Shown: in pieces, positions 16,548 to 64,000 of the stretch
Numbering within the stretch: position 1 is the stretch's first letter
How the letters are laid out: the number at the start of each line of letters is the position of its first letter
Origin: Selaginella moellendorffii
Lineage: Eukaryota > Plantae > Lycopodiophyta
Reading direction: 5' to 3'
DNA: 64,000 nt
NCBI RefSeq assembly: GCF_000143415.4
Contig: NW_003314320.1
Coordinates: 662,183-726,182 of the forward strand
Translations under genes and position numbers: made by a program
Notes under the pieces: model-generated
What the model was told of the DNA's origin: nothing
Databases searched by the model: none
The model's input: only the letters and a program-made list of their open reading frames with translations

Positions 16548-19385
16548 ATGGATTCGGAAGATGACATGCACGACGCCTGCACCTCGGATGACTACGATAG
16601 GGATGAGGACGAGGACAGTGATATGATTCCAAGCGATGAGGACGGTGACGAGATCGGCGACGACGAGTCGGACTATGGCTTCGACGATCAGTCAGCTGAT
16701 ATCTTCCAGCCCAGCTCCAAATGCTCTCAGGTAAGCTCTAGCACTGGCTCCAGGGTTTGATTCCATTTGCTCTTCCTCTTTGCGCTACAGATCAACTTTG
16801 TCATTCTTAGTGAGGCTGAGATCCGGCAAAGGCAGGAGCAATCCATCACAAGTGTTGCGACCGTTTTGTCTGTACCACGGATAGACGCGGTTATTCTTTT
16901 GAGACATTTCAAGTGGTATGTATGCTAGTCGACTCGTCCTGGCCTTCTGTGGGACGCCAAATTGTTTCTTTCTCGTGACGCGTTGTTGCAGGAGTGTTAG
17001 CAGAGTAAACGAGGAATGGTTTGCGGACGAGCAGGGGGTACGGCGGTCTGTGGGTCTCCTCGAAAGGCCAACGTCCCAAAGCACTCCAATGGCTATAGAG
17101 GTAACTTTACGAACTCTTCTTCTTCGTCGTCTCTTCTTCTTTTGCGTTTGGAAAAAGTGCTGAGGGGATTTTGTTTTGCTTTGCAGCCGACATGCGGTAT
17201 CTGTTTTGAGTTGCGCTCTGTTGATAGAATGAAGGCGCCCGCGTTTTGTAACCATTCGTTTTGTGACATATGTTGGACTGGTGAGTTCACTCGTTTTGCT
17301 TTTCGCGCTGCTAACTTTGGTGTTTGTGTAGGATACATGCATACGGCAATCACGGATGGGCCAGGTTGCCTGACCCTTCGTTGCCCCGATCCACCTTGTG
17401 GCGCTGCCATTGGGGATGACATGATAATGTCGTTGGTCTCGGAAGAAGACCGTAACAAGTACATGCGATTTCTCCTTAGATCTTACGTTGAAGATAATAG
17501 AAAGGTCTTTCCTCTTTTTTTTTTTTCTTTTTGTTTCCACTGAGTGGATTATTCATAGGAAGAATACTGAAATTTTGTTTTTGTTTTCTTTTTTTTTTCT
17601 TCTCGTGCGCAGGCGAAGTGGTGTCCAGCTCCAGGTTGTGAATTTGCTGTCGAGTTTGTACCAGGCAGTGGATCCTACGACATCGTTTGCAAGTGCGGGC
17701 ATTATTTCTGCTGGAATGTAAATGTTTTTTTCTTCTTTTTGATGTCGCCTGGGGTTTCTGACGCTTGGTTTTCTTTAGTGCTTAGAGGAAGCGCACCGAC
17801 CGGTAGATTGTGAGACTGTTGCAAAGTGGATCCTCAAGAACAGCGCGGAGTCAGAAAACATGAACTGGTACTATATCCAGCCTTTGTATCAAGTCATTGT
17901 CACGTACGTAGCTGTTGTCAGGATCTTGGCGAACTCCAAACCATGCCCGAAATGCAAAAGACCGATAGAAAAGAACTTGGGGTGCATGCACATTACCTGT
18001 ACGCCACCGTGCAAGTTTGAATTTTGCTGGTAAGTTCACATTTCTATCGTTCTTGGCTAGATACATCATGTTTACCATCTATACAGGCTATGCCTTGGTC
18101 CGTGGTCGGAACACGGCGAACGAACCGGAGGGTTCTACGCTTGCAACCGATACGAAGCGGCTAAGCAGGAGGGAGTGGTACCAATTGATATTTACGTTTC
18201 CCTTCACGGACTCATCCTGTTTGTGTAACAGTACGATGAAGCTGAGAGGAGGAGAGAAATGGCTAAGAACTCGTTAGAGAGATATACACATTACTACGAG
18301 CGATGGGCCACGAACGAATCAGTTGAGTTTCCAATTTGAGTATCTGATAGGCCTTTCTAACTTCGTTCATGGTACAGTCCAAAACGAAAGCGATTTCAGA
18401 TCTACAACAGATGCAAACGGTTCAGGTAAATAACCCTGTCTTTGAAGTTCTTTTCCTCACTTCCAGGCTAATGCGTTGCTGTTGTGCAACGCAGATCGAA
18501 AAACTCAGTGACAAGCAATGCCAGCCAGTATCCCAGTTGAAGTTCGTTACGGAAGCGTGGATTCAGGTGAGAGCCGCGATGCCGAAACCAGGAGCATAGA
18601 TTTTCTTTACTGAGCTAATTCTGCTTGCAGATTGTAGAATGCCGCCGTGTTCTCAAGTGGACCTACGCATACGGCTACTATCTTCCTGAAATGGAGCAGG
18701 CCAAGGCTCAGTTTTTCGAATACTTGCAAGGTACTTCCGTAAGCAAGAAAGCAAAAAAAAATGCAAAAGAGAGACGCTTTTTCTCCGTGAAGAAGACAAA
18801 GCTTTAACACCTCGGTTGGCATGTCTTCAGGTGAAGCAGAGGCCGGATTGGAGCGCTTGCATCTGTGCGCTGAAAAGGACTTGCAGATATTTCTAGAGGG
18901 GGATTCACCCAACGCCGCGTTCAACGAGTTTCGAACCAGGCTTGCGGGCCTCACAAGGTAAGAGCGGAGCCTGTGTATGTATAGAGTATATAGTAAGCGT
19001 CCACTTGCATTTAGCTGCTTTCTTTCTCCCCTCTGGCATCACTCACGCCGCTTGTGTCTTGTCCCTATACAGTGTAACCAAGACGTACTTCGAGAACCTT
19101 GTAAGAGCCTTGGAGAACGGGCTCTCAGATGTGGAGAACTCGCGATCTGGGAAAGGGGCGAGCTCCAAAGCCTCTGGAAGTTCCAAAGGCAAGTCTGGGA
19201 AGATTAGGATTCTTGGTGGCGGTGGTGGTGGTGGTGCTGGCTCCAGGAATGGAAATGGTGGCTCCAGCCGCGGTGGCGGCGGAGGTGACGATCATTGGTC
19301 TTGCGATAACTGTACATTTGTGAACGTGAATGGGGCGACAGCGTGTTCCGTCTGCAACCGTGTGAGACCCACGGCCGCATTTTAG
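16548..19385 (+). CDS. ARI: ARIADNE-family RBR E3 ubiquitin ligase (ARI5/7/8-like) with a C-terminal RanBP2-type zinc finger
   Basis: Acidic N-terminus; RING1 CGICFE...[10 protein letters not shown]...RCPDPPC; [11 protein letters not shown]; RING2 [21 protein letters not shown]; Ariadne domain [13 protein letters not shown]; [10 protein letters not shown]...CSVC after a Gly-rich linker. Confidence 0.95.
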
Positions 19386-21488: not shown

Positions 21489-21800
21489 TCATGGCATGTA
21501 GAGCTTGTTGCCACATTTGCACCTCCATGCCTCTGGGTAGTACTCTGTGGTTCTCACAAAGCCTGGCTGGATTGGAACATGCACAGCCCTGCATGGGGAG
21601 CAAAAGCCACACTTGGAATTGCACTGTGGTGGGGATGACCCCAGCCCACTCAAATCCCTCCTGGACTTGTCACCAGCAGATGGGCTCCTCCTGTTTGGGC
21701 TTGGGAAATCCAGCTTGGTCCTCTCCTGATGAGACAGAAACAACACACACAAACAAACAGATGATTCATGAGTAATTTGGTTGGTTTTGAAAAAATATAT

Positions 21801-21866
<66 letters not shown>

Positions 21867-22303
21867 CTGTGGGTGGAGGTGGAATTTACCTTGTGATCTT
21901 GGACTTCGGCACTTGCTGATACTGATGATGATGGTGCTAATCTCTTGTCATGGATTGGTTGCAACTTCCTGCTGCCTGTATTGCAAGTGCTAGTTAGCAA
22001 ATCTCAAAACTCCACCAAGAAAAGAAAGGAGAAAAGCTTCTCACCTCTTGACAATGTTGGGTCAGCCACTGCTGATCCCATGGAAGAAAGAGCAAGCAGC
22101 AAGAAGAGACAACAGACTGATGTCCATCTTCTTCTTCTGCTGCTGCTCCTGGTCATGATCATCCTGTGATGATCGAAACCAGGCTGAGACTCCTGCCGCT
22201 GCTGCGGTTGCATTTGATCATCAGGTGTGCAGCAACATGAGCAGCATGAGTGACGATCCGTCTCCACTTCCGCCTGCGCAGGCCGGCCTTGTCTGATGAT
22301 CAT
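21489..22303 (-). CDS. EPFL: EPF-like secreted peptide, EPFL4/5/6 (CHALLAH)-type; 3 exons
   Basis: Hydrophobic signal (WTSVCCLFLLLALSSMG). Mature domain LGSSPPQCNSKCGFCSPCRAVHVPIQPG...EYYPEAWRCKCGNKLYMP*. Confidence 0.92.
21803..21860. repeat. (CT)n microsatellite in an EPFL intron
   Basis: Uninterrupted CT dinucleotide run of ~58 bp. Confidence 0.95.
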
Positions 22304-30798: not shown

Positions 30799-31021
30799 TT
30801 TGCTAGATGATGTGAGACACAAAATCCCTAGGCCCCAAAGTGGCCGAAGCAAAAGCCAAATGAACGTAACACGTTTGGACTTTGGACTGAAAGCTTCGAC
30901 TTGAAAGGTTGAGAGCAGAAGTGGAACTCCCAACAAAGTGCTCAAGGAACAAGCACGAAACGAGCAATAAGCGAGGCTCCAAAAAGGGACCCAAAAGGAT
31001 CAGCACATGACATGTGGAAGT

Positions 31022-31520
31022 GTCCGAGATGGACCGAGACGGAGTTCTAGATGGAGTTCGGGATGGACCGAGACGGAGTCCGAGATGGAGTTCGAGATGG
31101 ACCCAAGATGGAGTCCGAGATGGACCAAGACGGAGTCCGAGATGGAGTTCGAGAGGGATCTGAGATGGAGTTCAAGATGGACCCGAGATGGAGTCCAAGA
31201 TGGATCCAAGATGGAGTCCGAGATGGACCAAGACGGAGTCTGAGATGGAGTCCGAGATGGACCCAAGATGGAGTTCGAGATGGACCGAGACGGAGTCCGA
31301 AATGGACCGAGACGGAGTTCGAGATGGACCCGAGATGGAATTTGAGATGGAGTCCGAGAAGGACCTAAGATGGAGTCCAAGGTTGAGACCGAGGCCGGGA
31401 CCGAGACTGGGATCGAGACCGAGACCAAGACCGAGATCAAGACCGAGACCGAGACCGAGGTCGAGGCCAAGTCTGAGTCCGAGTCCGAGTCCGAGTCCGA
31501 GTCCAAATTCGAGTCTGAGA
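31022..31520 (+). repeat. Short-unit tandem arrays (GAGATGGAGTCC/GAGATGGACC, then GAGACC/GAGTCC) inside the LTR of A
   Basis: Visible 6-12 bp periodicity. The same array with a different copy number is at ~51333-51900. Related hexamer arrays occur in the B LTRs (~35120-35390, ~48500-48780). Confidence 0.9.
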
Positions 31521-34500
31521 GGGTGAAAGCCCAAAGCGTTTGTCTCCTAGACCCTAGGGGGTTTAGTGAGCTCCAAATGTATAGTAAGGGGGAGGAATGC
31601 AGTGGAGCCAGTTTGGCCAGGAAAGGCCAGTTTGGCCCAGGAAGGCTATACCCAGTGTTAGGTGATGAGCTGCCCACTGGGAAGTCCAAGACTAGAGTGA
31701 ACACGGACGGACAAGCAGGGTAGTTTGGTGAAGTGTTCAAGAGCCGGTTCTAGTTCCCCCGGGAGATCGACTGGCCGATGCTCCCAGTCCAAGTGTGGGT
31801 GGCACTACCTACTTGGATACCTGGCATGGCTCAATGGAACTTTGCTCTAAGCCCATGGCTAGAGCACCCAAAGATGGAAGGCGGGGAGAGTACCCATGAG
31901 GCTCGCATAAGGCTGTGGTGTTCCGAAATGTTGCCCCAAAGTCCCAAACTGTGAAAAGGAGGAGGAACTGTCCTCTAGTGTAGAGACCAAGGATACAGTC
32001 ATGTGAGGAGGTAGTCCCAGAGGACCGAGGGACTTAATGGTCGGGCTTGTGGGCCTTGATCTAGTGGCAATGTTGGTGAACATAGCCATGGACAAAAAGG
32101 GACTTGGTGGGGACTGGAAAAGAGATATTGGGGAAGGCTAATCCCCATGTCTGTGGGCATCCTAAGGATGCTAAGGAGTGGATCAGGGATGATCATTCAT
32201 GGATGGATGACCCAGTCTTTGAGAGATGGGACTGTGATGCAGATGGTGTTAGACCACCGGTATGACCAAAGTGAAGGGGCATGGCCTTAGCGTAATAGGT
32301 TGATATGTCGATGGTACCTTGGGGTGTCGGTCATGGGATCAGACACGTGGAGCACTTGGACCAAGTGCAAAGGTTGAGTGGCATGGATGTCATTGTTAGG
32401 GTTAGCAAGTCCCTAAGTCCAGAATGGGACTTATGGAGGTTGTGAGTGAGACTCCTCCAAGTGGTTGAATGTATGGTTAAGTGACTAAAGTAGAATGGAA
32501 AAATTAATCTCTTACAATTTGGTATCAAAGCCGTTCCTTAGTCTGACTTTTATTGGTGCTTAAGTATATCACCACTTGTGTTGGCATCGGAAGGTCCTAG
32601 GAGTGGGCCTATCTTTGAGGAGTAGCAAGTCGGGAAGACATGGCTCTCCACTCAAGTTCATGCGTGAACTTGTGTGCAATGTGGTGGATGGAAAAGGGCT
32701 AATAAGGGAACAACTTTGGGATCTTGGGAATAGCATAAGGGTTTCCTCGGAGAGTTGAGGATGTGATCCAAATGAGCATTTGATGCAACAAATGGGCTAA
32801 TATAGTTATGGTAAACAATTATAGTTGGGATCACGGGAAAGATGCAGACTCCAAAACAATAAAGGAGTCACAAGAATACCCTCTTGACGTTGAGGCTAGT
32901 GCTCATGAATTTGAGACCAAAATTAATGACCGTGGAAGGTCAAATACGGAAAAGGACACAAGTCCTCGAAATGGTAGTCGGAGCTACCTCTAATAAATGC
33001 TGGAACAACCCAAGGAGTTTGGGGTGTACTCAGAGGATGAGATGGTATTCTCATCACATGGACAAGTGGTCCTAAGGGGCAAAAGGTTGCCCTAAGAGAA
33101 CAAATCAAGTGTCAGAGTAACACTTGCAAAGATGGTCTTTGTGAGTAGGATGCGAATACAAGAAGTTGTATTCCAATGAGTTAGCACCTCAGAGGTAGGA
33201 CCTCATGGGTTGTCGAATGACAAAGTTTAAAAAGCTGGATGACTCAAATAGAGTCAAGGAATAATCCTAAAGGATTGATGGAAGCATTTGGACTAAGGTG
33301 TGTTGTACCCTACGAAGGATGGGGGGGATCATAGGATCCAAAGATAAGAACAAAGGGTATTTCATCGATGGTAGAGTGGGCCATGCTAAAGTCATGGGAA
33401 AGGTGTTCCCAAAAAAAAAAAAAGCAACTTTGGCATAGAGTTGTGTGTGAACACTATGGTGTAGTGCTAATTGATAGTTGGCATGAAAAATGACTGTTTT
33501 GGTCTTGGCAAAGACCTAGACATAAGTAAGAAGTGTCATAGAGGTAAGCTCATGGAGCCATTAGTGTGGAGACACCAAATGTGCCAAAGTAAGATACCTT
33601 GAGGTTATGTTAATGGGTTCATAGGAACCTTTTGCCAAGGGAATGGCATAGCCTAAACTAGAAGGCATGTGGTTGGAGTGTGGTGACCCAGCACCAAGTA
33701 ATGAGTTGTAGGACTTGACAATTATGGGGCAATTAAGCGAGAGATGCAAGATAATTGGTTAAACGGGTAGAAAGTAGCTACCCAAGACTTCTTAATGGCA
33801 TAAGGAAGTTAGATATACCCTTACGAGGGATAAATTGCTTATGTTGCGATATAGTAAGTCAATGTCGAAAAACAAAATGCTCATTATCAAGGAGACTATC
33901 ATTAGGACACCCAAACGCTCTGGAACACTAGAAGGTGGTGTTTAATATTGCGAGGGCAATAGATAAGGCCCAAAGGACTAAGTCCTTAGCAAATGATGGA
34001 TAGGAGATGCTATCCAAATGTCCAAAGTTGTGGAGACGGGAGGAATCCGTCTACCCGATTTGGACAAAGCTAAAAATGGGATTTTGGCAAGACTAGTGAT
34101 GGGCATATGGAGGCCCATAAGTAGCAATAGTAATCCTAGTGTGTGGGATTATAAAGTGAGCATGCCCAGATTGAGGAACCACTCCCTAAGTTATTGGGTA
34201 GGTTCATCACTATAAACACTTGCTAAGGCATGGTAAAATGTGGAAAGTTATCCTTTTAGTATGGAGGAGAATAACCAAAGGAAACATATGGGGCCAAAAG
34301 GCAAATGTAAGCCACAAAATTTTTCCTTTCCAATTTGCCAGCTTACCTTGTCTATTTGACCAACACTGCCTTGGCTTGTGCTAAGTTCCCTCGCCAAGGT
34401 TCCACCTATTTTACCAGCTTCTACTTGGTCCTACTTGGTTTCAGCTACTTACTGTACGAGCAACGGAGCGTTAGCCATCCATCCACGGATTCCCAAATCT

Positions 34501-36251
34501 CTCCCAATCCCCCTCCCCGGGTTAGACTGGACTTAAGGTTTGGCTACACTCCCCACAGGCACAAGCAACCAAGCACACCAAGCCTCCAGGTTCCTAACAC
34601 CCCTTGGTACAACAAGACTTGATCATGGGACCCTCTAAATCCCAAGCCTTGGGTGCAACACTTGCTTCGGAACATCGGGGTGAAACACCGTGGCCTAACG
34701 GCCCGGCATGGGTACCTCTACCCCCCCACTTCCATCCCGAAGGGAAGGCCCAAGCCCCTAGGAAGGGCGAGGACCAATGAGCCACAAGGTACTCAAGTGG
34801 GGCACCACTCCACATGAGCCGGGAGCACCGCCGTCGGTTTCCTTTCGGGAGTGGGAGCTGCTCTTGAGCACTTCCCTAGGTGGCCCCTCCGGCACCACCC
34901 AAGCCCATGTTCACTCCCACCCAAGGCCCCTCGGCCCCAGTCTCAACCTCAAGTCAGTTTGGAAGCACCACTAAAGAGTTCCTTTAAGACTGATTCCTGG
35001 ACTTCACTATCCCTACTATACTTTTGGAACCCCCTACAGAACCCCCTACAGCCCCCCCCCCCCCCCCCCTGGGAGACGCACGCTTTGGGCTTTCACCCCT
35101 TGACCCGTATTAGTATTTGGACTTAGTCTCAAATTTGATCTCGGACTCGATCTCGGACCCGACTTCGGACTCGGTCTTGGACTCGATCTCAGACTCGATC
35201 TCGAACCCAGTCTCGGACTTGACTTCGGACTCGACCTCGGACTCGGTCTCGGACCTGATTTGGATCTTGGACTCTGTCTCGAACTCGGTCTCGAACTCGG
35301 TCTCCAATTCAGCCTCGGACTTGATCCCGGACTCTATCTCGAACTCGGTCTTAGAGTCGGTCTTGGACTTGATCTTCGACTTGGTCCCATCTGATGAACA
35401 CTTTATCATTTTGGTCATGCTTTCGGGGATCCTTTACCTATGACACCTCGGGGAGTCGGTTCCTTACAACTCCACCACCCATAGAAGAAGTTCGATGCCC
35501 ACATCGAACGTCTCTTTTTATCCTACAACTTGTTGACCATGTCTCCAGGGGCATCCCCCCACTTAGCGGTGTGCCTAAGTTAGCCTCCCCGGCCAAGAGC
35601 CCATGACAACAGAATATAGGTGTCCCTATACCCCTCACCTCACCAAGCCCTAGTATGGTGTCAGGACTTGAACCCAGCCTTGCTTTACTAGGGGGTTGGG
35701 ACTCGAACCCAACCTTCGTAGAATATGTCTACGGATTCGACATCCCCGCAAGGAGTTGGGCGTAGTGCCCTATGCCTGGTCGACCTAGCCAACCCATGCT
35801 AATTAGCTTACCTTCGGCACGCCTTCAGGTCCTAACATATGCCATTGCTCAACTTCACAAATTGATATTTTAATTGAACTTTGCATAAGTACATAGAGTT
35901 CTGCCTTGCAGAAATTCCTCCATTAGATCTCGCGCGTTCGCTAAGTTCTCCTCTGGTTCCCATATTGCTTTGTAGTGTGGAAATCCTTTCCACTTCACAT
36001 GAAACTCTCTCACCTCGCGCCCTCGTCGCTGGCTCTTGCGCGCATTGAGGATGGCCTCGACTTCGTATTCTTCCTCCCCTTGGATAACCTCAGGTAAAGG
36101 TCTTACTTAGTCCTTCCAAAGCGGATTCTGAAAGTACGGCTTGAGTAAGTTCACGTGGAACACTGGGTGCATCTTCCCTATCTCTCAGGGAAGTCGGAGA
36201 TGGTAAGCCACTTTACCGATTCGTGCCTCAATTTCGTAAGGCCCCGTGAAC

Positions 36252-36303
36252 CTGCTTAAGGAACTCAAGATCAATTCATTTACAGGAATACATGCATTTT
36301 TAC
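36252..36303 (-). other. Putative 52-nt spliceosomal intron just before the integrase GPY motif of element B
   Basis: CAA AG|GTAAAAATGCATGTATTCCTGTAAATGAATTGATCTTGAGTTCCTTAAGCAG|G TTC ACG GGG CCT TAC. Removal gives KLTQRFTGPYEI. Confidence 0.8.
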
Positions 36304-36721
36304 CTTTGGGTCAACTTTCGGGTTATCCCACTTGGTAGCCTGAGGTTCTTGGTGTTCAGCCACACCTTCTCCCCAGCTTGGAACTCTACGTCCCGACGCT
36401 TCTGGTTTGCGTACTTGGTTTGCCTTTGTTGAGCCCATTCCAAGGAATCCCTCACTAGATTCCAAATGCTGAGTCTTTCCGCCGTGAATGCCTCCACTGT
36501 AGGTAACTCTCCATGATACTCGGCCACGTCGAGTTCCACAGGACCTTCAATAGCTCGCCCATTGATGACTTCCTATGGACTCACCCCGATATTCGAATGT
36601 GGTGAGTTGTTATAACACATTTTCGCAAGTCCCAAATGACTTACCTAATCGGTCTGGTCTGCCGAAACATAGCATCGCAAATAATCCTCCAATTGCCTAT
36701 TCACCCTTTCCGTTTGTCCGT

Positions 36722-36762
36722 CTGTCAAGAAGTGTTATCAAACTTGACTTAATGCCCCATAC
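36722..36762 (-). other. Putative 41-nt spliceosomal intron in the integrase catalytic core of element B
   Basis: ACA A|GTATGGGGCATTAAGTCAAGTTTGATAACACTTCTTGACAG|AC GGA CAA ACG GAA. Removal gives YHPQTNGQTER and exact D-x35-E spacing. Confidence 0.75.
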
Positions 36763-39700
36763 TTGTCTGTGGGTGATAGGCTGTGCTGAATTTCAACTTG
36801 GTGCGATATTGTTCCAGGAGAGTTTTCCAGAACCTACTAGTGAAGATCTTATCTCGATCTGAGATAATCTCTTCTGGCCTTCCCCACACTTGAACCACTT
36901 GTTCGAAGAATAGCTTTGCCACACCTTCCGCATCCACTTCCATTGTGGTGGGTATGAAATGTGCCATCTTCGAAAATCGGTCCACCACCACGAATATCGC
37001 ATCAAACCCCTCGCTTGGGGGGAGTCCTGTGATAAAGTCCATCGTAAGACACTTCCACGGACAATCTGGAATTGGGATGCTTTGCAACAAGCCCCCACTA
37101 GCCTTAGTCATGGCTTTGACCTGCTGACGTGTTGGACATGTCTTTACATAGTCTTGGACGTCCTTAGCCATATCTGGCCAATGGTACTTCCTCTTGAGTA
37201 AGCCTATCATCTTGGGCACTCCGCCATGTCCCGCAAGAGGTCCGTCATGACACTCTTTTAAGGCTACCTTCCTTAGTTCCCCTTTTGGAACATACACCCT
37301 CATTTGCTTATAATAGATGAGTCTGTTGCATTCTGCATAGCCCGTTTTCTCTTCCGTTGGCAACTCACCTCTCTAGTGAGCTTCTCGTGCCTCTAGATTC
37401 CTTAGCAACACTTCTTGTGCTAGACCATCATTCTTATATGCTGTCCATACATCGTCCCAAAGGTTGTTGTCGCATTGGATCGCCAACTTCAAGCTCGCTT
37501 TTCGACTTAGCACATTTGCCACGATGTTGCTCTTCCCAGGCTTGTACAAAATCTCGCAATCAAACTCGGCCAAGGCATTGGCCCATCGACCCTATTTCCC
37601 TCTCAGGTCGGGCTGTGACAAGAAGTGTTTCGTTGCCACATTGTCCGTGTAAACCTTAAAGTGTCTCCTAAGGTAGTGTTGCCACTCCTTGAGTGCCTTG
37701 ACCACCACAAACAATTCTTTCTCGTGGGCAGGCCACTTCCTTTGAGCCTTGTCCAACTTCTTCGAGAAGAACGCTATTGGATGGTTGTCTTGCTTCAAAA
37801 CTGTGCCCAATGCAAAGTCTGAAGCATCTGTTTCAACCTCAAAGTCCTTACCAAAGTCTGGTAATGCCAACACGGGAGCCTTCCTCAACTTTCCTTTGAG
37901 GTGGACGAATGCCGCCTCGCATTCCGTTGTCCATACCATCTTCCCTTTTCCCGTTTGGTCCGTTAAGGGCAGGGCTACTCTCGAATAGTGTTTGATAAAC
38001 TTTTGGTAATAGTTGCATAGCCCCAAGAATGCCCTCAACTCATGTACATTTGATGGTCGCTCCCATTCCTAGATTGCTTGGACCTTCTCCGGGTCCACCT
38101 TGAGCTCGTCCTAGCCCACCACATGCCCGAGAAATTTTACCTCTTGTTGAGCAAAGTCACATTTGCTCTCTTTAGCATACAGTTTATGTTCCCTTAGTTT
38201 CTCAAACACCTTGGTCAAGTGTTCGACATGCTCCTCTAGAGTCTCACTATAGATCAGGATGTCATTGATATAAACAACCACGAAGTGATCCAAATAGGGT
38301 ACAAAGATATGGTTCATCAATGCCGAAAATGTTGCCGGCGCATTGCACAGCCCAAAGGGCATCACCAAAAACTAAAAGCTCCCACACCTCGTTCGACAGG
38401 TTGTCTTCTCGACATCTTCCTCTACTACCCTGATCTAGTAGTATCCTAACTTTAGGTCGATCCTCGAGAAGTATTTTGCCTTTCCCAACTGATCGAACAG
38501 GTCCTCAATCCTTGGCAAAGAATACTTGTTCTTCTTTGTATACTTGTTAAGCAACTGGTAGTCTATGCACATGCGCATAGATCCATCTTTCTTTTTCACA
38601 AAGAACACCGGCACCCCATACGGTGACTTGCTCAACCTAACATACCCTTTGTCCACCAACTCCTTTAGTTGGCACTTGAGCTCCTCGAGTTCTTTTTCGT
38701 TCAAACGATAGGGGGGATGAACCACCGCCTTAACACCCTCGACTAGCTCAATCTTATGTTCCAGTCGTGTGAGGGGCAACCCCGCCGGTAGCTCCTCTGG
38801 CATGGTATCTTGGAATTGGTCCAACACCCACTGGATCACTAAAGGTACTTCTTCCGTTCCTGTCTTTTTGTCACTCTTCACCGAGAGTAAGCACAAAATG
38901 CTGCCTTAGTTCCTTTAGTGAGTTGTCCTTCCATGGACACCAGATTTAAGCAAGAATCTTTGGCCTTGCTTTGCCCTACCTTCAGATCTTGGGCTTCCAC
39001 CCTAGATCTTTTTCCTTGGGCATTCGCTAGTACCACAAAGTTTCTACCTTGTCCATAAAGGGCTACCACGAACCGATTGAACCAATCCATTCCGAAGATC
39101 ACGTCAAATCCCGCCATGTCCAACACGGTGAAATCCATGTCCACTTTCCATGTCCCTACTTCAACTGTCGCTTGTCGAAGTACCTCATTGGTGCTTTGGC
39201 TACCTTGAATAAACTCTATAGTCCTTGGTTTGCCTAGCCGCTGCACCATTAGTGTGGCTTGCCGGACTATGTCTGGAGCCACAAAATTATCCGAAGCACC
39301 CGTGTCAATAAGGATCTTAACAAAGCTACCTCTGAGCTTGCCTTGGAGGGCTAGTAGATGTCGCGAATGACTCTCTACCAAAGTTGCTCGTGTAATGAGT
39401 AACTTTGAGTTAGGGACTGGATCACATACCTCAGTTTGGACTTCACCCGACTTGATGGCCATATTGGCTCTAGCCTTCTTTGGGTAGGGACATTCCCTCG
39501 AAAAGTGTCTCGCTTCACCGCAATTGTAACATATGTTGTTTCCCATGCTGCTATATGACTTGACTTTGTTATCCATGGGTTTGTCTCTTTTTGCTTAACT
39601 CCCCCATGTACTTGCTCACTGGCCATCGGACTTGCCTTTCCGGAACCCCGAGGACTCATTCTTAGAGAAACTCTTCTTGAATTTCCCTCTGCTATACGTT

Positions 39701-41230
39701 CCCCTTGGTTTGGTCCCTTTGCTAAGCGTGGACCCCGACCCCGTCATGTTCCCCTTTCGCAGTTTATCGTTGAAATGCACCTTGATGGCCGCATCCAACA
39801 CTTCCTTGCAGTTGGTTGGGCTCCAATGCATCACCTCACTGCGAGCCCAAGTTTGCAAACCTAATATGAAGGCATGGAACGCATCCATATCCCCCATGTC
39901 TGTGACAAGTATCCTCTTTGCCATAAACCCATTCACATACTCCTGAATGGTTCCGGTCTGCTTCAGCCTACTCAGCTCGTCCCTTAGATGCAGAGTAGCA
40001 TTTGGAGGAACGTAAGTCACGCGGATCCTCGCCTTCATCATTTCCCAAGTGGCCACTGATCCTTCGTTGGCCTCTGTCGTTCTCTACCAAGACTTGGCAT
40101 TATCTGCTAAGTATGGTTTTGCACATAAGACCTTCTCCGAGCTTGGTAACCACAACGCTCGGAAGTAGTCCTCCATATTGTAAAACCAATCCTCCACCAC
40201 CTTATAGTCGTTCACTCCCTTGAAGACCAGTGGGGGCTTTGGTTTGTACTAGGGAACTGCCTCACTGGAGTCCTCCTCATGCAAGGATTCCTCATCCATA
40301 ACCTCTTGTTTGGCCAGAGGCTCCAGCTCTGGCGGAGGTTCCGTCTCCGCCTGGGTTCGCTTATGCCCTGCCTTTGCCATCTCCCAGTAATCTGCCTCTA
40401 TCCTTTGCTAGAACTGAGGAAGAGGCTCCGATACCAAATTGTAAGCCACAAAAGTTTTCCTTTCCAATTTGCCAGCTTACCTCGTCTATCCGACCAACAC
40501 TGCCTTGGCTTGTGCTAAGTTCCCTCGCCAAGGTTCCCATCTATTGTATCAGCTCCTACTTAGTCCTACTTGGTTTCAGCTACTCACTGCACGAGCAACG
40601 GAGCGTTAGCTAAACCTTAGTAGCCGAACCTTAAATCCACGGATTCCCAAATCTCTCCCAATCCCCCTCCCTGGGTTAGACTGGATTTAAGGTTCGGCTA
40701 CACTCTCCACAGGCACAAGCAGCTAAGCACACCAAGCCTTCAGGTTCTTAACACCCCTTGGTACAACAAGACTTGATCATGGGACCCTCTAAATCCCAAG
40801 CCTTGGGTGCAACACTTGCTTCGGGACATCGAGGTGAAACACCGTGGCCTAACGGCCCGGTATGGGTACCTCTACCCCCCCACTTCCATCCCGAAGGGAA
40901 GGCCTAAGCCCCTAGGAAGGGTAAGGACCAATGAGCCACAAGGTACTCAAATGGGGCACCACTCCACATGAGCCAGGAGCACTGCTGTCAATTTCCCTTT
41001 TGGGAGTGGGAGTTGCTCTTGAGCACTTCCTTGGGTGGCCCCTCCGGCACCACCCAAGCCCATGCTCACTCCCACCCAAGGCCCCTCGGCCCCAGTCTTA
41101 ACCTCAAGTCAGTTTGGAAGCACCACTAGAGAGTTCCTTCAACACTGGTTCCTAGACCTCACTATCCCTACTATACTTTTGAAACCCCCTACATCCCCCC
41201 CTCTGGGAGATGCATGCTTTGGGCTTTCAC

Positions 41231-44200
41231 TGTAGCGCACGTGGTTTTGACCCTTTATCCTATGGTGATTTACCATAGGATAACACCACGAAGCGGAACC
41301 TAAACCCTCTTTGTGCCACGTGACAGATGCCACATGTCACATGCCACATGTCCATAGGAACCCGAGGTTCAGGGCCTTGGGCCACTGAACGAAGGAACGG
41401 TGCCAAACTCCCAAGCGTGGAGCCAAGGAGTGATGGAACCGGACCACGGAGCAACTCCCGAGCATATAGGCCAAGGAGCGAAGGGACAGGAGCCCGGAGC
41501 GACTTGGAACAGTCCTGAAGCAACCAGCATCCCAATGCCAGGACTAACACGCAAAACGGAGCCAAACGGAGTCTGGCGCTATTTCGGCATACCGATGGCC
41601 TAACGTGAGGATATGGGTACTCCACCAGCTAGCATGGAATGGAACTTGGGCTTAGACCCAAGCCGGACGCAGAACAAGGACAAGCACGCAAGCGGGAGCT
41701 AGACTATGCCTCAGGTTGGTCGGCCATGCCCGACCTACCCACTATCCCTACTATACATTTGGAACCCCCCACAGCTCCCCCCCCCTTGAGGAACACACGC
41801 TTTGGGCTTTCACCCCAAGCCTCCCTTAGTATCAGGAGTTAGTCTCTAGGACAAGCTCGAAACTTACTAAATATAGAATGTCCCTAGATTGCGAAATTGG
41901 ACACGGAACGAACACCATTGTGTTCAGGCCAACCTCTACATTCCGTAGATATGCCAAATGAGCAAATCTGGACACTTTCCATAATTAGCATTTAGGACCG
42001 AAATGAGACTAACACAAAGGGCATGATAGCGAGGGTGTTTGGCAGACACGGTAAGCTATCATGTAGCGATATTGAGGGACCAATCTCAATACGTGAGGGT
42101 TCTTGTCACTAGCCAGTGCAAGACATAACGAGACGGGAACTCCTTACCGGGCTAAGTATGCTTAGCTAATAACACGTAGGAATTCCGTCCTTATGCTCGT
42201 CCGGTCTAAGTACACTCGAAATGCCCAGTTAACTCCACTAGCACAAGAGGGACTGATAAAGGGTCCAGCAATACTGACCTCCTGCCGTCGTGGCAGTAAG
42301 GTAAGAGTGTCCGTAAGGACTGGTCGACAGGTAACTTTCGATACCCGAAGTCACATTCGCGACACTCTCCCCCCCTTGGGAAGATCGACATCCTCGTCGA
42401 TGCACACTTGAGTCTAGAATACCGCCAAGGAAACAACTCCAGAAAAAGTTCACGGTACTCACACTATGTGAGAAATGCACCGACTTAAATGAGTTAGGGG
42501 GAACCTCTTTGTCTAACGCTGATGCGCTACCAGCTCAGACACCTTTCGGCCGTCACCGACAAGGAAATGACCAACGGAGTCAGCCACCCTTGCTGCTCTG
42601 GGTGTCACCCAGCTACAAAAGTGTGATATGCCCTGCCCGCAGGAACATAGAGAGAGAAGCCAGAGGCCCCAACCCTCCTGAGTAAAGAAACCAAACCCGT
42701 CGGTAAGGTTTAGATAGACTACTGTAAACAGGTAGTGTAGAGTTGTTTACACGGTCACGCCCTTTCACAGAATAAGGAACATCGACAGAGAGGCAGGTTA
42801 TGTGACCAGTCGACAGTAGCTATCCCATGACTAGAGATTTCAACATGCACACGAAGTGCCGAAGCCAGTCTGCCTATACTGGCCCAAACTCAACGAGCAA
42901 TAGATGGACAATATCAAAGTCAGAGACAATGATATCTGAGAAGCTTAATTACTAGTGATTATATCTTAGAGTAGAACACAAAAGTATTCCACATAAGTTA
43001 TCATCCGATAACCTAGTATTTATAGTGTAGGAACCACCAAGATCATCAGTTCGGGAAATATAGGATTAACCATCCAACAAAATTCAATAGCAAGTAGATC
43101 ATCAAGAAAACTCAATGAGGAAACTTAACTACCAAAAATAATAGATAGTAAGCCAACAACTTACTAGAGAGAACTCAAAGAACACAAAGTATCATTGACT
43201 AACAAGCACAATGCTCGTGAATGTATCACCCAAAGGAAATAACATCCAAATCTATCAAAACTAACTCGAGCAACGATCAACAGAAGAGAATGAATGTGGT
43301 AAAACCAACAAACACTCATGCCTGCCAACTATCACAAAAGCTAATCTGAATAGATCCCAGCCAACAACACCAAGGAACTCAAGTTGCCTAAGCAAGTGTT
43401 AGCAACATCCTACTGATGTCTCAAGCCCAAGAGACCAAACCAAAGCAAACCACAAAGAACATGTGGTATTGCAAAAAGCCATAAGCTATCAAAGAGAATA
43501 ACTAACCATCATGAAAGATCATCAATCATTCCATCAATAAAGAGATGCATAATCATCGTCTAAGAAGGAATCCACCATCCCGAAGAACGGCAAACCATTC
43601 TATACCAACAATAATCAAACAAAACTTTTTGACATGGATAATCAATTATCCTAGATGATAGTCAATCATCACCAATGATTGCTAGATGCAAATACTAACT
43701 TCAACATTGAAGCTAATGAGCCAAAATGCCTTCCCCAACAACTTCTAACAAATGGAACAATGAGCATAAAACTCAAAGAACCAAAGCTCGAAGAAGCCTA
43801 TAGCCAAGTCTTGCTTAATAATGATCACAAGTCTCATAGAAGCTAACTTCAATGCTAAAGAAGTAATCATGGTGCAACCCACAATGTCTTCTTCAATACA
43901 TCCATAAGCCAAACTTCATAATGCCAAAGCTAATGAAGAGCATTTCTGCATCAATCCAAAAGCTAAGCACAATGGAGCTATGCTCAACAAGTGATCACTA
44001 AATGATCCTCCATGAATCCATTTATAGCAAGACGTAACTCACTTCATAGCAAGCACAAGAAGAATCATCAATGATAGATATTTCAACTAAAATCCCAAAA
44101 GGATTCAAAATATTCCAACATCAATCACTAACTCTCCCACTTGTAAAGTTAGCATAGTCCATGACTAAATCACTTTTCAAGGAAAAGCTCAAAGCTCAAC

Positions 44201-47200
44201 CCCTACTAAATAATCTCATCTAGAACACAACAAACTCAACTTGCCACTCAGTTCATTTGAACGTCAACACAGTTGCTAATTAGCAAATGCATGAATGCCA
44301 ACAACACAAAGCCATAGCCAAATCATCAACACTATCTTCATTAAGATTAATAAAACTCAATATCAATCCTAAGGAGAGACATCTCATTTCACTTTGAATC
44401 TCAACCTCAATAATGTCAACGACAAGGCATCACTTCAATGCCATCAACACCAAAACAAAGCTAGAAGAAAGCACGAGTGAATCACCACTCGGAGCTTTCC
44501 AGCAACCAAGCTAACCAAAGTCGAAGATACTATACGTAGTATCCGAGACCAATCCTTCAGCAAAACTTAGTTTCAGATAACACATCATCAAGGAGTGAAT
44601 CACCACGTCCAAGACTCAATGAAATCCAACACTACGGACTAGATGTAACCCAATGATATCGACAGAGGTAGAGTCGATATATCAACATGAAAAACTCATG
44701 TAAGTCTAACGACACAATCCTCCGCAACACCATTCGATAAAGCAAGCCCATCACTGCTGAATCATCATCGAGCAAAGCAAGTGTCAACAGTCCTTGACGA
44801 AGTCAACAAGCAATCACTAATTGCAAAGCAACTAACACTCACTCCTCAACTTGCCTTCACAAGACCTAAACACCAACTCTTGTCATCAAGTTATATACTT
44901 GTCCAACATGAACATAATACCGCAGGTACGAGATAAGAGTTCATAGACAAGCACAAACTAAATGACCACTCGAATCCAACTCAACCGCAATAAACTCACA
45001 AAAACATTTAGCCATTTAGCTCTGAGCATGCCTTGAAGAGGCTAGCTATACAATCAACACTCAGTCGAAACTAAAGTGAAGACCATGAGATGGACTCATA
45101 TTGGTACACAACTTCCTCATAGACAAAGCTATAGTACGGGTACCAACATCGCAACCTCAAACAACAAAATTGGATATCACCATCCTCAGCCAAGGCACAG
45201 GGCCACCAAGACCAAGTCAAGATTAGTGAGAGCTCACTACTCTCATAGAGTCTAACGTAATGCAAGGTACAACCTGCCACTAAGCACAACGCTACAAAAG
45301 AAAGGTACAAGGGTCACCTTTCTGAGAAAAGTGCAACGGCCACTTTTCTATATCAACTCTAGACTCTATCCAACTCAATTGTTTTAGCCCCAAAAGTTAA
45401 CATCCCTTTCGGGCCGCATTATACAAACTACTTACTAAGATCTAAGCCAACTGAAGTCAACTCCAACCTCTTCACTAGTTTGTATTGGCTTACGAAAACG
45501 GAATGGTTTTCGGTAAAGTGACCAACAGATCAGCCATTGGAGAAGTCTAAGAAAATTTGTGGAAAATTTCCCATCCTAGAGAAAGAATGACTCTCAGTCC
45601 AGGATTGCAAACTTTCAAGACTCAACCAACTTCCTCCTACCTACAACTTCACATAGGTTCACCTCAACACAAATTCTCATGATCCATCAATATGCTTAAG
45701 CATCAAACATCTTTGCCCATTTTCCCGATATCCAACTTCGACATCCGCAAAATGCAAAATGAACATCCAAGGCTTGATCACAAAGACCACATCTTCGGAT
45801 ATCCATATTGCACTAACACTCTTCTTCAATCACCTTCAAGATCCAATGTGAAGCCAAAACACTAACAAGAAAAATGACATGGAAAAAAATCAAGATCCAA
45901 GGAAAATTCCTCATCACTTGAAATAACAATGCCACTTCCACTAACACAAGTGCTAGCAATGTCAATGCCTCAACTACACACCTTCTCTATACAACAATCT
46001 ACTCCAAGTGCTAATGGACCAACCGACAAGTCATAGCAAGTGAATGCTATAACCCTTTTTCAACACCAATGGGCAAACTCAAGGAAACAAAGTACCAACT
46101 TAAGCTTAGCACAATGGATCACCTCCAAGAATCCAATTAAAGCTACTACAATGCTACTACGTGCAGGTAGACTAGCTTCACCATCAACCACTTTGGGGTT
46201 GATCATCATTTACCCAAGCAACTCTGTAAACACATTGCTCATTATCACATGGATATGATATAAATCACAATGACTTGATCATCAATTGAGTAACGCAATG
46301 AGCAATGCTTATGTCATTACTTCAAACGTTTATGTGAGTATCAAATGCCAACTCGATTCGACAAAATGCAACATAAATGCCACACTCCACCAATAGAGAT
46401 TTACGACACCCAACACCACTAACTTTTGTTCACAACACAGACAAGCTCATGCCACTCTCTTTCCGACCAATCTCAAAACTATTCCAACACCAAGCTACTC
46501 AAGGAGAAATAGCAAGGTTCCCCGGAAAAGAATTGAGCATTGCAACCCAAGCCTTTCAATAGCGAGCCTAGACAAAATGGTTTAGTGTTTCACCACTATC
46601 CATCCCATAACTCACCACTTGTAAGACCATCACTACCAACATGCATCAAGGTAGGGACTCTTGATTGCATAATGTGAACACAAGCAATGAGTTAACACCT
46701 CGTTGCAAATCATCTCTCCAAAAATAGAAAATGATTTACGTATTTGATCCTTCGTCCCCGATGACTCTCTTTTCAGTCTCATCTTTGACTAAACTTTAAG
46801 CTTGCTTTCGCACTACCTTCAGTTCAATCCAAGAAAAGTTTATGAGAGAGCACGGCCATGACTACTTGAACCAATAGACTAATCCCTATAGTCTTAATTG
46901 TTCCACTTATAATCATGCCTAGGAAGGATCCACTAGTGCCGTGCTAAATAGCTACAAACCAGCCTATTTGCCACTCATAGCAAACCCAGAGAGTTTGCTT
47001 TCACCCATGGCACAAGGAACAACTCATAGAACCACCGATAGGCTAACATTAATCCTGCCAACTCAAAGTGTAACCTCGAGTTGCTAATGCGCCTCACTCA
47101 CGAGCCCAAGCGCAAACTCCTGTAACAAAACAATTTAGTCCACCCTATGAGCCCAAGAGCAAGCTCACATATTATGAAACACAGAGGTAACCAAAACCTA

Positions 47201-48481
47201 TCCCAAGGAACTAATGTGAAGTTTTTGCACCAAAACGTGTACCCACTCGGATCATCGTTTTCATCTCTGCGTATGCAACGAGACTAGTTGCCCAATCTCA
47301 TTGGATAGTTCTCGCCGAGACTCTACCTCTGATACCAAATGTAGCGCACGTGGTTTTGACCCTTTATCCTATGGTGATTTACCATAGGATAACACCACGA
47401 AGCGGAACCTAAACCCTCTTTGTGCCATGTGACAGATGCCACGTGTCACATGCCACGTGTCCATAGGAACCCAAGGTTCAGGGCCTTGGGCCACTGAACG
47501 AAGGAACGGTGCCAAACTCCCAAGCGTGGAGCCAAGGAGTGATGGAACCGGACCACGGAGCAACTCCCGAGCATATAGCCCAAGGAGCGAAGGGACAGGA
47601 GCCCGGAGCGACTTGGAACAGTCCTGGAGCAACCAGCATCCCAATGCCAGGACCAACACGCAAAACGGAGCCAAACGAAGTCTGGCGCTATTTCGGCATA
47701 CCGGTGGCCTAACGTGAGGATATGGGTACTCCACCAGCTAGCATGGAATGGAACTTGGGCTTAGACCCAAGCCGGATGCAGAACAAGGACAGGCACGCAA
47801 GCGGGAGCTAGACTATGCCTTAGGTTGGTCGGCCATGCCCGACCTACCCACTATCCCTACTATACATTTGGAACCCCCTATAGGCCCCCCCCCCCCCCCC
47901 CCCCCTTGAGGAACACACGCTTTGGGCTTTCACCCCAAGCCTCCCTTAGTATCAGGAGTTAGTCTCTAGGACAAGCTCGAAACTTACTAAATATGGAATG
48001 TCCCTAGATTGCGAAATTGGACACGGAACGAACACCATTGTGTTCAGGCCAACCTCTACATTCCGTAGATATGCCAAATGAGCAAATCTGGACACTTTCC
48101 ATAATTAGCATTTAGGACCGAAATGAGACTAACACAAAGGGCATGATAGCGAGGGTGTTTGGCAGATACGGTAAGCTATCATGTAGCGATATTGAGGGAC
48201 CAATCTCAATACGTGAGGGTTCTTGTCACTAGCCAGTGCAAGACATAACGAGACGGGAACTCCTTACCGGGCTAAGTATGCTTAGCTAATAACACGTAGG
48301 AATTCCGTCCTTATGCTCGTCCGGTCTAAGTACACTCGAAATGCCCAGTTAACTCCACTAGCACAAGAGGGACTGATAAAGGGTCCAGCAATACTGACCT
48401 GCCGTCGTGGCAGTAAGGTAAGAGTGTCCGTAAGGACTGGTCGACAGGTAACTTTCGATACCCGAAGTCACATTCGCGACA
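41231..48481 (-). mobile_element. Non-autonomous LTR element C (LARD-like), inserted in the 5' LTR of B
   Basis: Near-identical LTRs 41231-42364 and 47340-48481. Perfect TSD TTCAC (41226-41230, 48482-48486). PBS TGGTATCAGAG 47327-47337 (minus); PPT 42365-42375. About 5 kb of internal sequence with no recognisable coding frame. Confidence 0.95.
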
Positions 48482-51400
48482 TTCACCCCTTGACTCGTAT
48501 TAGTATTTAGACTTAGTCTTGGATTCGATCTTGGACTCGATCTCGGACCTGACTTCGGACTCGGTTCTTGGACCCAATCTCGGACTTGACTTCAGACTCG
48601 ACTTCAGACTCGACCTTGGACTCGGTCTCGGACTCGGTCTCGGACCCAATTTGGATCTCGGACTCTGTCTCGAACTTGGTCTCAAACTCGGTCTCCGATT
48701 CGGCCTTGGACTCGATCCCGGACTCTATCTCGAACTCGGTCTCAGAGTCGGTCTTGGACTCGATCTTCGACTCGGTCCCATCCAATGAACTCTTTGTCAT
48801 TTCAGTCATGCTTCCGGGATCCTTTAGCCTACGACACCTCGGGGAGTCGGTTCTTTACATCAAGTAGTATTGGGATGGAATTGAACCATAGAAATCGAAG
48901 GGCATAACCAACAGTGGTTATGCAAGTTGAGAGTGGAGAATCAAGAGGGTGCTCGAGGATGTTGTTACTAGCAATTGCGATGCCATGGAGAGTCTAAAAT
49001 GTGGAATTATCCATGTTGGACCATATGGTGAGTAGGGAGCTTGCAAAGGAGAAGCCTTAGCAAGCTAAGGAACAAAGTTCCTTAAAAGTTCCCGAAGACA
49101 ATTCTAGGTAGATAAGTACCTAGAAAGCCAAGTGTAAATGGTTCCTAGAGTGCGCAAAATCAGAGTGGTGCAATAGAAGTGTGGTCTTGAAGCTGGCTAT
49201 GAGGTGAGGCTATCAAAATTGGGGAAGTAGTTCCCGAGTGTTCAAAGAGAGGGCTTTGAACAAAAGTCGATGGTTAAGGACTTTCACGCTTATGCATGAA
49301 CCATGTTACAGTGGCCGGATGACTTGCTACGCGAGATTGGCGAGTCAGAGGAACAAATCCCCTAGTTTAAGGTGCTAACTTCAAAAGGGGTGGCCCATAG
49401 GGCCGAGCATGGAGGAGTCCATGCATGATCACAGACTTGTCAAGTGAGAGGACTTAGTAGTGAGGAGGAACTAGGTTCCAAAGCTGTGATCTATAGTGCG
49501 CTTTAAGTACAGGTTGGTGCACCGGCATGGGGACTCACGCCAGGCATCCGGTGTGATGCCGTCCGTAGATGCATATATGGAGGTTGGGTTTGAGTCCCGA
49601 CCCTCTAGTGCTTGGGTTCGAGTCCCAAATCACTAGGGTGTGGTGATGGTTTGGAATATGAGGACACTCATATTTCGGTGGTCATGGACTCTCAGTGAGG
49701 AGACTAGCTTAGGCACACCGCCAAGCAGGGGATGCTCTAGAGTTGTGATGCACAATTAAATTGTTTAGAGTGAAAGCTCGACATATCTAACTTGAACACT
49801 TTGGTGCAAAAGGCACCAAGGATGTGGTGAATGAGATGGGGACACCTAGTCTTAGTTGCTATAGATCCTTGGCCAGAAGGGCTGGCTTGGGCACACTGCA
49901 AGTGTGGGGGATGCCCCTAGGGTCATAGCCAACAATCTAAAAGGGTCTAAAAAACCTAATTCCTATTGGTAGACCTGTTAAGGGGTCAAGATGAGATCAT
50001 TAGGTGATCTTGTGGCTAAACAAGGACAAAGTCCTTGTGAGGTTAAGGGATAAAGTTCCTAGTTCAAAGTGTTGGTTTGAACTATTGATGATGGTGTGGC
50101 TTGGTCAAGATGATCAAGTGGGAAGAACACCTAAAGGAAATGATTTGTGACTATGTGATGGCATAGTGAGTCCGAAAAAAGTAGTCTCTATAAGAGACCC
50201 ATGGGAAGGTCACAAAGTTGGGCCAGGGATAGAGCCTACAGTAGAAAATCCTAAAGAGACCTACTAGGGGTGAATAGCCTTTGAACTTGGCAAAACAAAG
50301 TCTTTGCTATGGAACCGAAAGGATACCTCAAGAATAGAGGTAGTGACCCAATGTTGTTGGGTGCAACAATCAAGGATAAGAGCAAAGGACTAATGGCTAA
50401 GAGAAGAGCCATGGGAATCATGGGAAAGAATCCAAATGGCAAACTTAGGCCGAGAACACTAATGTGTTGGGTGCTAACAAATTGTGGGAAAGGCAATGTT
50501 TTCCCAGGGATGGATTCCCAACCACTCCAATTTGGCAAAAGTGGAAGCTCCAAGAGGGGGAGCAGTAAGGTAGCCAAATAATAAGGCCATAGGTAGCCTT
50601 AGCACAAGTTATGATAACTGGAACTTAGTGCCAAATGTGGCATGATATCAAAGAGGGGATGATGGTGCCCTCAAGTAAGAACTTCCTAGGATGGAAAAGT
50701 GGAGTTGCACCATGGGCAACGTAAGGTGTTGGGGACATCTAGGAAATTGACTATGAGAAGTCAAAATTAAAAGTTCTAAAGTGCAAAGGATATCTCAATT
50801 GAATTTGAGACTACTCGAGAATGAGTAGTGGAACTGAGTTAGAGAGGGTGTCTCTAACGGGTTTAGCGAGAACTGACCCAATAAAAGGGAGCAAACCACC
50901 CTAGGTGGTCTAGTTAGTCTCTATGTTGAAGAGGCTATGCTCCTTAGAGGATAGACAAGCCATGGTGAGCCTTCGGAGTCAAACCATAAACAAATATTGG
51001 TTGGGTGCCAAGGATGGAAATGGTAATACAATGTGGGTGTTACTTTATAAAAGGGTTTATTGTTCGATGAGGACATCAAACTTCGTTTATGGGTGGTGGA
51101 GTTGTGAGACACAAAATCCCTAGGCACCAAAGTGGAGCTGAAAGGGTGCCACATGGTAGTGGCCGAAGCAAAAGTCAAACGAACGTAACACGTTTGGACT
51201 AAAAGCTTCAACTTGAAAGGTTGAGAGCGGGAGTGGAACTCCCAACAAAGTGCTCAAGGAACAAGCACGAAGCAAGCAATAAGCGAGGCTCCAAAAATAG
51301 ACCCAAAAGGACCAACACATGACACGTGGAAGTGTCCGAGATGGACCCGAGTTGGAGTCTGAGATGGACCGAGATAGAGTCCGAGATGGAGTCCAAGATG

Positions 51401-61570: not shown

Positions 61571-61707
61571 NNNNNNNNNNNNNNNNNNNNNNNNNNNNNN
61601 NNNNNNNNNNNNNNNNNNNNNNNNNNNNNNNNNNNNNNNNNNNNNNNNNNNNNNNNNNNNNNNNNNNNNNNNNNNNNNNNNNNNNNNNNNNNNNNNNNNN
61701 NNNNNNN
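61571..61707. other. Assembly gap (137 N)
   Basis: Run of n characters. Confidence 1.
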
Positions 61708-63624: not shown

Positions 63625-63968
<344 letters not shown>

Positions 63969-64000
63969 AAATTGAGAGACATATAGGCTACAGCCGTGGA

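Follow-up and report, generated by a model that had tools for sequence, protein, structure and literature searches.

Two candidate introns in the integrase of a Selaginella moellendorffii chromovirus, very probably SM1-Galahad

Background

Retroelements are expected to lose spliced introns in the first cycle of replication. Here we describe a Ty3/gypsy chromovirus in which two short segments with GT..AG ends interrupt the integrase frame. The element lies in a 64,000-nucleotide stretch of the genome of the lycophyte Selaginella moellendorffii (assembly GCF_000143415.4, contig NW_003314320.1, positions 662,183 to 726,182); this whole stretch is referred to as the window, and all coordinates are counted from its first letter. 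The segments are likely two gained spliceosomal introns in the integrase of a known family, and likely a feature of that family.

Two groups of elements with long terminal repeats (LTRs) come closest to this arrangement. In Ogre an intron lies between Gag-protease (PR) and the reverse transcriptase (RT), RNase H (RH) and integrase (IN) domains, and splicing of a subset of the transcripts allows the complete polyprotein to be translated, including the integrase (PMC6317226). Like the present candidate, the Ogre intron is located in the polyprotein region, is kept in genomic copies, and has to be spliced for the production of the downstream enzymes; dependence of integrase on splicing is therefore not new in principle. 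Ogre, a non-chromovirus of the Tat lineage, differs in that a single intron, about 274 bp long, separates the Gag-PR from the RT-RH-IN open reading frame (ORF), whereas here two candidate introns of about 40-50 nt are situated within the integrase, one of them splitting the catalytic core, and RT and RNase H would not depend on splicing.

In barley BARE the translated transcripts are capped, polyadenylated, partly spliced and without R; the packaged transcripts are uncapped and unspliced, and amplification did not yield any spliced DNA copy (PMC3735527). The gag splicing of BARE1 and of EVADE/Copia resembles the candidate described here in that a short intron is located in the polyprotein ORF and separate RNA pools bar the spliced forms from the genome (PMC3735527, PMC12786077). 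In those elements splicing takes pol out, the unspliced RNA serving as the complete mRNA, whereas the polarity here is the opposite: the unspliced RNA would be without a working integrase. As plant cases a 2025 review names Ogre, EVADE and BARE1 (PMC12786077). Introns are also retained through retrotransposition in Penelope-like elements, including one Selaginella family with an inferred intron, but these are not LTR elements, their introns are mostly in the 5' untranslated region, and they replicate by another mechanism (PMC8557442). Introners provide an example of intron gain by small insertion (PMC12130899). Short direct repeats flank both inserts of the present element; unlike introners, the two segments show no likeness to each other, and no further copy of either was found within the window.

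A preliminary description of the locus, made from the sequence letters, knew of no comparable arrangement. No report of introns inside the integrase of an LTR element was found in the open literature (subscription papers, Repbase/Dfam and most supplements may annotate them), and none is mentioned in the available sections of PMC2864245, PMC12477816, PMC12130899, PMC13192763, PMC7175516 and PMC12810828. The claim of novelty is too strong in so far as splicing that enables integrase is known from Ogre (PMC6317226) and separate RNA pools are known from BARE (PMC3735527). The new part is likely the minimal introns inside the integrase core, the known part a splicing-dependent pol.

Position of the segments and reading frame

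The two segments, 41 and 52 nt long (junctions 36763^36721 and 36304^36251), are located where the preliminary description placed them; neither length is a multiple of 3, and each contains an in-frame TAA. The chromovirus consists of the following parts, given in the order of the coding strand:

48482..48859, minus strand: outer part of the 5' LTR, 88.0% identity to the 3' LTR over 375 columns
41231..48481, minus strand: nested non-coding LTR element A, inserted in the chromovirus 5' LTR and flanked by a perfect 5-bp target duplication
40440..41230, minus strand: inner part of the 5' LTR, 93.7% identity to the 3' LTR over 773 columns
40425..40436, minus strand: primer-binding site (PBS), tRNA-Met type, 3 nt beyond the 5' LTR
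36763..40380, minus strand: coding piece 1, with gag, CCHC, protease, RT, RNase H, integrase zinc finger and the start of the integrase core
36722..36762, minus strand: segment 1, 41-nt GT..AG intron candidate within the integrase core, with in-frame TAA
36304..36721, minus strand: coding piece 2, 138 whole codons including the Glu-bearing GQTERVN; two in-frame stops in the window copy
36252..36303, minus strand: segment 2, 52-nt GT..AG intron candidate, AG|GT at both ends, in-frame TAA directly after the donor
35870..36251, minus strand: coding piece 3, with the (F)xGPY motif and the chromodomain (Pfam Chromo, about 36067-35909); two in-frame stops in the window copy
35469..35480, minus strand: polypurine-tract-like stretch ahead of the 3' LTR
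34306..35468, minus strand: 3' LTR, 1163 bp, TG...CA, with an 18-G tract (35069-35052) and 12-bp tandem repeats

The domains, identified with Pfam, form the series of a Ty3/gypsy chromovirus (gag, CCHC knuckle, protease, RT, RNase H, integrase zinc finger and core, chromodomain), and the order gag-PR-RT-RH-IN between LTRs, together with the PBS and the polypurine tract (PPT), places the element among the chromoviruses. The C-terminal chromodomain was recognized with an E value of 4e-14 (Pfam Chromo) and an atlas score of 0.94. The PBS motif found in the sequence is of the tRNA-Met type. The 5' LTR, interrupted by element A, adds up to 1164 bp, and the chromovirus without element A is 7298 bp long; its flanks, the candidate target duplication, agree at three of five bases only. 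Neither TATA-like nor AATAA motifs were found in the 3' LTR, and a bacterial promoter scan of the LTR, a model irrelevant to plant LTRs, gave no match. The window copy is dead. Apart from the two segments its lesions are, as the preliminary description had it, point stops and small frameshifts: 14 in-frame stops, ten of which are in piece 1, and one frameshift near 38894. The LTRs are 88-94% alike.

When three full-length relatives were compared by tblastn, the only changes of frame were one near 38894 and those at the segments. In each of the 45 long relatives with an HPQ(T/S)DGQ motif, which by selection of this motif are uninterrupted at the site, exactly one residue, Asp, separates the parts corresponding to piece 1 and piece 2. 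The 138 codons of piece 2 are matched by a motif spacing of 137-140 residues in 33 of 38 relatives. The segments were also found when the gaps were measured blind with tblastn: at segment 1 all four query proteins yielded a 41-nt gap with GT..AG ends, and at segment 2 three of the four yielded 52 nt, the GT..AG ends being called with two of the four. Windows with GT..AG ends make up 0.5% of the 41-nt windows in the coding span (23/4466) and 2.4% of the 52-nt windows (105/4451), and the joint chance of such ends at both segments is about 1e-4. The claim that excision restores the integrase is borne out as far as colinearity is concerned, which is exact at both sites; the codon at junction 1 is less favourable (see below).

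When the unspliced RNA is read, the polyprotein ends four codons into segment 1, past both Asp-bearing motifs and short of the Glu-bearing one, and has no chromodomain. We take the two Asp motifs and the Glu in GQTERVN to form the DDE triad of the integrase. Spliced RNA would encode the full Gag-Pol, including the integrase catalytic core and the chromodomain. Short direct repeats surround both segments (GACA at segment 1, AGGT at segment 2), which suggests an origin by insertion with target duplication: each intron may have been born as a small insertion, with a duplication of 4-5 bp supplying the AG.

Splice sites and conservation of the downstream pieces

To judge the segments as introns, a splice-site matrix was built from the 14 introns of one host gene in the window only, and the segment ends were ranked among the 255 donors and 405 acceptors of the coding span:

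16548..19385, plus strand: host ARI8 gene, the intron yardstick, with 14 introns of 51-115 nt

The ARI8 protein encoded in the window is identical to S. moellendorffii ARI8 (P0243) in 608 of 608 residues. The intron lengths of this species are reported to follow a distribution markedly unlike that in other land plants (PMC6157073). The donor of segment 2 ranked second of 255 and its acceptor third of 405; its length of 52 nt is within the host range, and its AT content is above that of 99.7% of the coding windows of the same length. Segment 2 thus looks like a host intron in length, AT content and splice sites, whereas segment 1 is weaker.

If the integrase had long been disabled, the pieces behind the inserts would be expected to decay. 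Measured against 29 relatives of the seed-plant type, the identity of pieces 2 and 3 relative to that of piece 1 was 0.74 and 0.78, and the same ratios in seven intact controls were 0.65-0.92 and 0.68-1.06, respectively; three chimeric-looking proteins (P0144, P0183 and P0214) were excluded from this comparison. Conservation of pieces 2 and 3 is thus at the level of intact elements, with no visible decay, which fits with selection but also with recent insertion.

Identity of the family

The chromovirus is very probably SM1-Galahad, a family of S. moellendorffii with hundreds of copies that are about 7.5 kb long and about 95% alike, with LTRs of more than 1 kb containing poly-G tracts of 11-25 nt, and with a tRNA-Met PBS (PMC3350952). 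In the multi-copy reconstruction of 2012 the long ORF stops after the core integrase; two short ORFs, of 316 and 309 bp, lie downstream, and the second of them holds a group I chromodomain (PMC3350952). The comparison with the exemplar was made on its published description (the family criterion being at least 80% nucleotide identity), and the identification therefore rests on shared features. These are the host species, the LTR lengths (1163/1164 here, 1076/1146 published) and TG..CA ends, the poly-G tract (18 G here), a PBS of the tRNA-Met type in both, the total length (about 7.3 and 7.5 kb), a long ORF ending after the core integrase, short ATG-to-stop spans of 321/303 nt here as compared with 316/309, a group I chromodomain in which the chromo box is altered, and a very high copy number. 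A difference is seen in ORF1, which at 3632 nt is 253 nt below the published 3885; this agrees with loose ends of many copies at 40260, in gag, which suggest that the window copy is without a stretch of gag.

The published reconstruction drew on several copies, so the breaks that it contains are a trait of the family. The main text of PMC3350952 reports them without explanation, the strings 'intron' and 'splic' occurring in it 0 times, and the text of its one supplement contains no 'SM1', 'Galahad' or 'intron', although the figures may show more. No other paper naming SM1-Galahad was found in the open literature.

Other genomic copies and RNA

Other copies were sampled in a DNA sequencing run, X1, which placed 48,131 contigs on 35500-40400. 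This run may derive from the window's own sample and its counts are incomplete; the results refer to the best 40 of 563 variant rows, 15 of 156 joints and 6 of 1361 loose-end places. At 36754, within segment 1, a base different from that of the window copy makes up 99.6% of the depth (227,587; 63 contigs), so the segment is present in other copies. Six additional bases are seen there in the loose ends at 36737 (26 contigs; among the six places listed) and in one joint row. Judged by eye, the longer version, of about 47 nt, retains the stop and has a CTAAC branch-site-like motif 13 nt before its 3' end. Segment 1 is thus no private decay of the window copy but is carried by many other copies, and the case that the preliminary description had named as fatal, segments unique to this copy, is contradicted by these copies and by the same three-ORF break in the published reconstruction. 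None of the four indel rows listed at 5% or more is a deletion of intron size, and none of the 15 best-supported joints skips 41, 47 or 52 nt. Of the 40 variant rows listed, none falls inside segment 2. Three of the 14 stops of the window copy fall on listed rows, and at all three a base other than that of the window copy accounts for about 99% or more of the depth. Loose ends of many copies at 38894-38898 suggest a small indel at the PR-RT boundary in the window copy. A further run, X14, labelled as a second organism, contains 19% of the sampled words; six runs presumed to be RNA (X15-X20) contain 5-11% of them and are not used as evidence.

Three RNA runs (X22-X24) were each covered to about 12%. 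One read pair of X22 accounts for about 300 aligned bases, with no read counted at 36754. This pair is ambiguous, because a spliced mate fits and so does a contiguous mate whose end lies about 12 nt further on, if read ends are left uncounted, and it was not used as evidence.

Related elements

An alignment scan yielded 80 related loci of 42-53% identity. Site 1 is uninterrupted in 72 of the 73 loci in which it could be tested (the remaining one has a 13-nt deficit; seven loci were untestable). At site 2 all 43 testable loci (37 were untestable) differ in length only by multiples of 3, from -12 to +18. A comparable insert was found in none of the 80 loci, either at the two sites or elsewhere in 67,690 aligned residues; a 65-nt GT..AG gap in one locus (L006) was rejected, being located in the variable PR-RT linker, where close relatives align gap-free. 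Scans of metagenome and viral contigs with a single protein gave no close relative; there were 43 and 5 pattern matches, respectively, and none was confirmed. No near-identical protein was present among the 150 listed of 266 representative hits. The closest matches of the RNase H domain are seed-plant chromodomain polyproteins (55-56% identity).

In an integrase tree that contained no labelled reference elements, and that bears on the question of the Galadriel clade, the window sequence grouped with unnamed rows. Three other assignments were rejected: the Tcn1 clade, which self-primes without a tRNA PBS (PMC6317226), as a PBS of the tRNA-Met type is present; an Ogre-type element, as the stretch from 39000 to the integrase yielded no break of intron size and both breaks are in the integrase; and the Tat lineage (extra RNase H, no chromodomain), as the alignment with chromoviruses is continuous from RT to integrase and a chromodomain is present.

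Explanations for the two segments

The explanation that we favour, and consider reasonably probable, is that the segments are real introns, spliced in the RNA that is translated and retained because only unspliced RNA is reverse-transcribed, as in BARE. The intron interpretation of the preliminary description is supported by the anatomy of the segments and by their family-wide presence. The host spliceosome would take both inserts out of the translated RNA, and the unspliced RNA would serve as the template for reverse transcription; the introns would survive, as in barley BARE, because the translated and the replicated RNA form separate pools. Both inserts were kept during amplification through RNA, hence the replicated RNA must be unspliced, and if the family provides its own integrase, a spliced mRNA must exist. 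With RNA sorting of the BARE type a new intron in pol would cost little and would never be lost. Such introns may be tolerated, not selected as a switch.

Several observations weigh against this explanation. The split codon at junction 1 specifies Asn in the window copy and Asp in all 45 relatives, and the same 41 nt taken out in a register without GT-AG ends would give Asp; this alternative register exists because segment 1 sits in a short direct repeat. At 41 nt (about 47 nt in other copies) segment 1 is shorter than all 14 host introns, the ranks of its donor (41/255) and acceptor (25/405) correspond to scores at the low end of the host range, and its AT content is ordinary, being matched by 12% of the windows. 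For segment 2 the family-wide presence follows only from the published ORF layout and from the absence of a deletion among those listed. The depth of X1 at 36754 is less than half of the median of the 40 listed places, of which seven are as low. X22, X23 and X24 gave 12, 3 and 0 reads, too few for a test, with no joint listed, and no sign of two promoters or two RNA pools was found in the present analysis. No protein spanning the junctions was present among the listed representative hits, whose best identities were 45-56%. No intact copy of SM1-Galahad was found in 2012, and the same genome contains its close relative SM2-Galahad, with one intact ORF, an LTR identity of 99.7% and hundreds of copies (PMC3350952).

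The last of these points make room for a family with a dead integrase, in which the inserts are not usefully spliced, Gag-PR-RT-RH is produced at most, and integrase is borrowed from SM2-Galahad. We regard this, the main alternative, as unlikely, though it accounts for the absence of an intact SM1-Galahad copy among copies that are about 95% alike and for the shortness and weakness of segment 1, it agrees with the absence of junction reads among the few RNA reads, and parasitic pairs are known, such as BARE2 on BARE1 (PMC3735527). Against it, two independent inserts would have acquired GT..AG ends by chance, one of them with near-best splice sites, and pieces 2 and 3 show no excess of decay and are open in the published reconstruction.

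The favoured explanation, real introns removed from the translated RNA, can be extended to introns that act as an adaptive switch, but this is a further step and we offer it tentatively. SM1-Galahad would then be autonomous and obtain integrase only from RNA spliced at two minimal introns; the spliced RNA would be barred from replication, so that hundreds of copies keep both introns, the spliceosome would set when and where integration occurs, and the truncated integrase might serve as a brake.

Leaky splicing in a single RNA pool, in which both forms are packaged, splicing is rare and a minority of copies is intronless, appears improbable. Ogre is spliced in only a subset of its transcripts (PMC6317226), and the depth at segment 1 is below that at most listed places; with 15 of 156 joints listed and incomplete counts, a minority of intronless copies is possible. 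However, no skip of 41, 47 or 52 nt is among the 15 best-supported joints and no such deletion among the four indel rows, and an intronless copy would presumably be autonomous and be expected to spread.

Private decay or an assembly artefact of the window copy is very improbable: the copy is old and dead, as its LTRs and stops indicate, but for segment 1 this explanation is largely refuted by the other copies that cover it, and the same breaks recur in the multi-copy reconstruction of 2012. Least credible is ribosome bypass in place of splicing, for which the matched codons at the segment ends and the stop after the first of them in segment 2, visible in the sequence and laid out as in the programmed hop of phage T4 gene 60, could be cited, but a short target duplication yields matched codons automatically, the take-off sites lack a strong hairpin (folding energies -7.9 and -12.9 kcal/mol), and we know of no programmed bypass on eukaryotic cytosolic ribosomes.

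If the segments are introns kept by RNA sorting, the family would be a natural read-out of the discrimination between translated and packaged RNA, the number of intronless copies relative to spliced reads giving the tightness of sorting. The three-ORF layout, published but unexplained, would then be accounted for, and the family would represent a recent intron gain inside a retrotransposon. It would also call for caution with pipelines that score 'no intact copy', which may miss autonomous families.

Other features of the window

The preliminary description had suggested that non-coding relatives such as A, C and D may be mobilized in trans. This link is only suggestive: the polypurine-tract letters ahead of the family C LTR at 51104 are those found ahead of the chromovirus 3' LTR, and element A has no gag-pol similarity. 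The LTRs of family C (about 51104-52893, 30839-32516 and 61708-62616) also contain 12-bp tandem repeats similar to those of the chromovirus LTRs, and these two features make family C a candidate passenger of the chromovirus family. Element A is present in two copies (41231-48481 and 54441-61543), with PBS, PPT and 5-bp target duplications; the LTRs of the first copy are 98.5% alike. The stretch 35005-35130 of the chromovirus LTR is 71-79% identical to the LTRs of element A and possibly represents a common promoter or R region. A sequence like the element A LTR lies in inverted orientation at 28955-29269, and a weak match (E 3e-4) to a retrotransposon RNase H region at 29614-29781 is probably an old fragment.

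Exact-sequence look-up of nine ORFs of the window in the protein collection found none of them present. From their translations we take 306-1226 to be an exon of an AGC-type protein kinase, 7113-9029 (minus strand) a coiled-coil gene, and 21489-21947 the frame of a small EPF-like peptide. A run of N at 61571-61707 marks an assembly gap and is reported together with long AT/GT microsatellites at 63600-64000.

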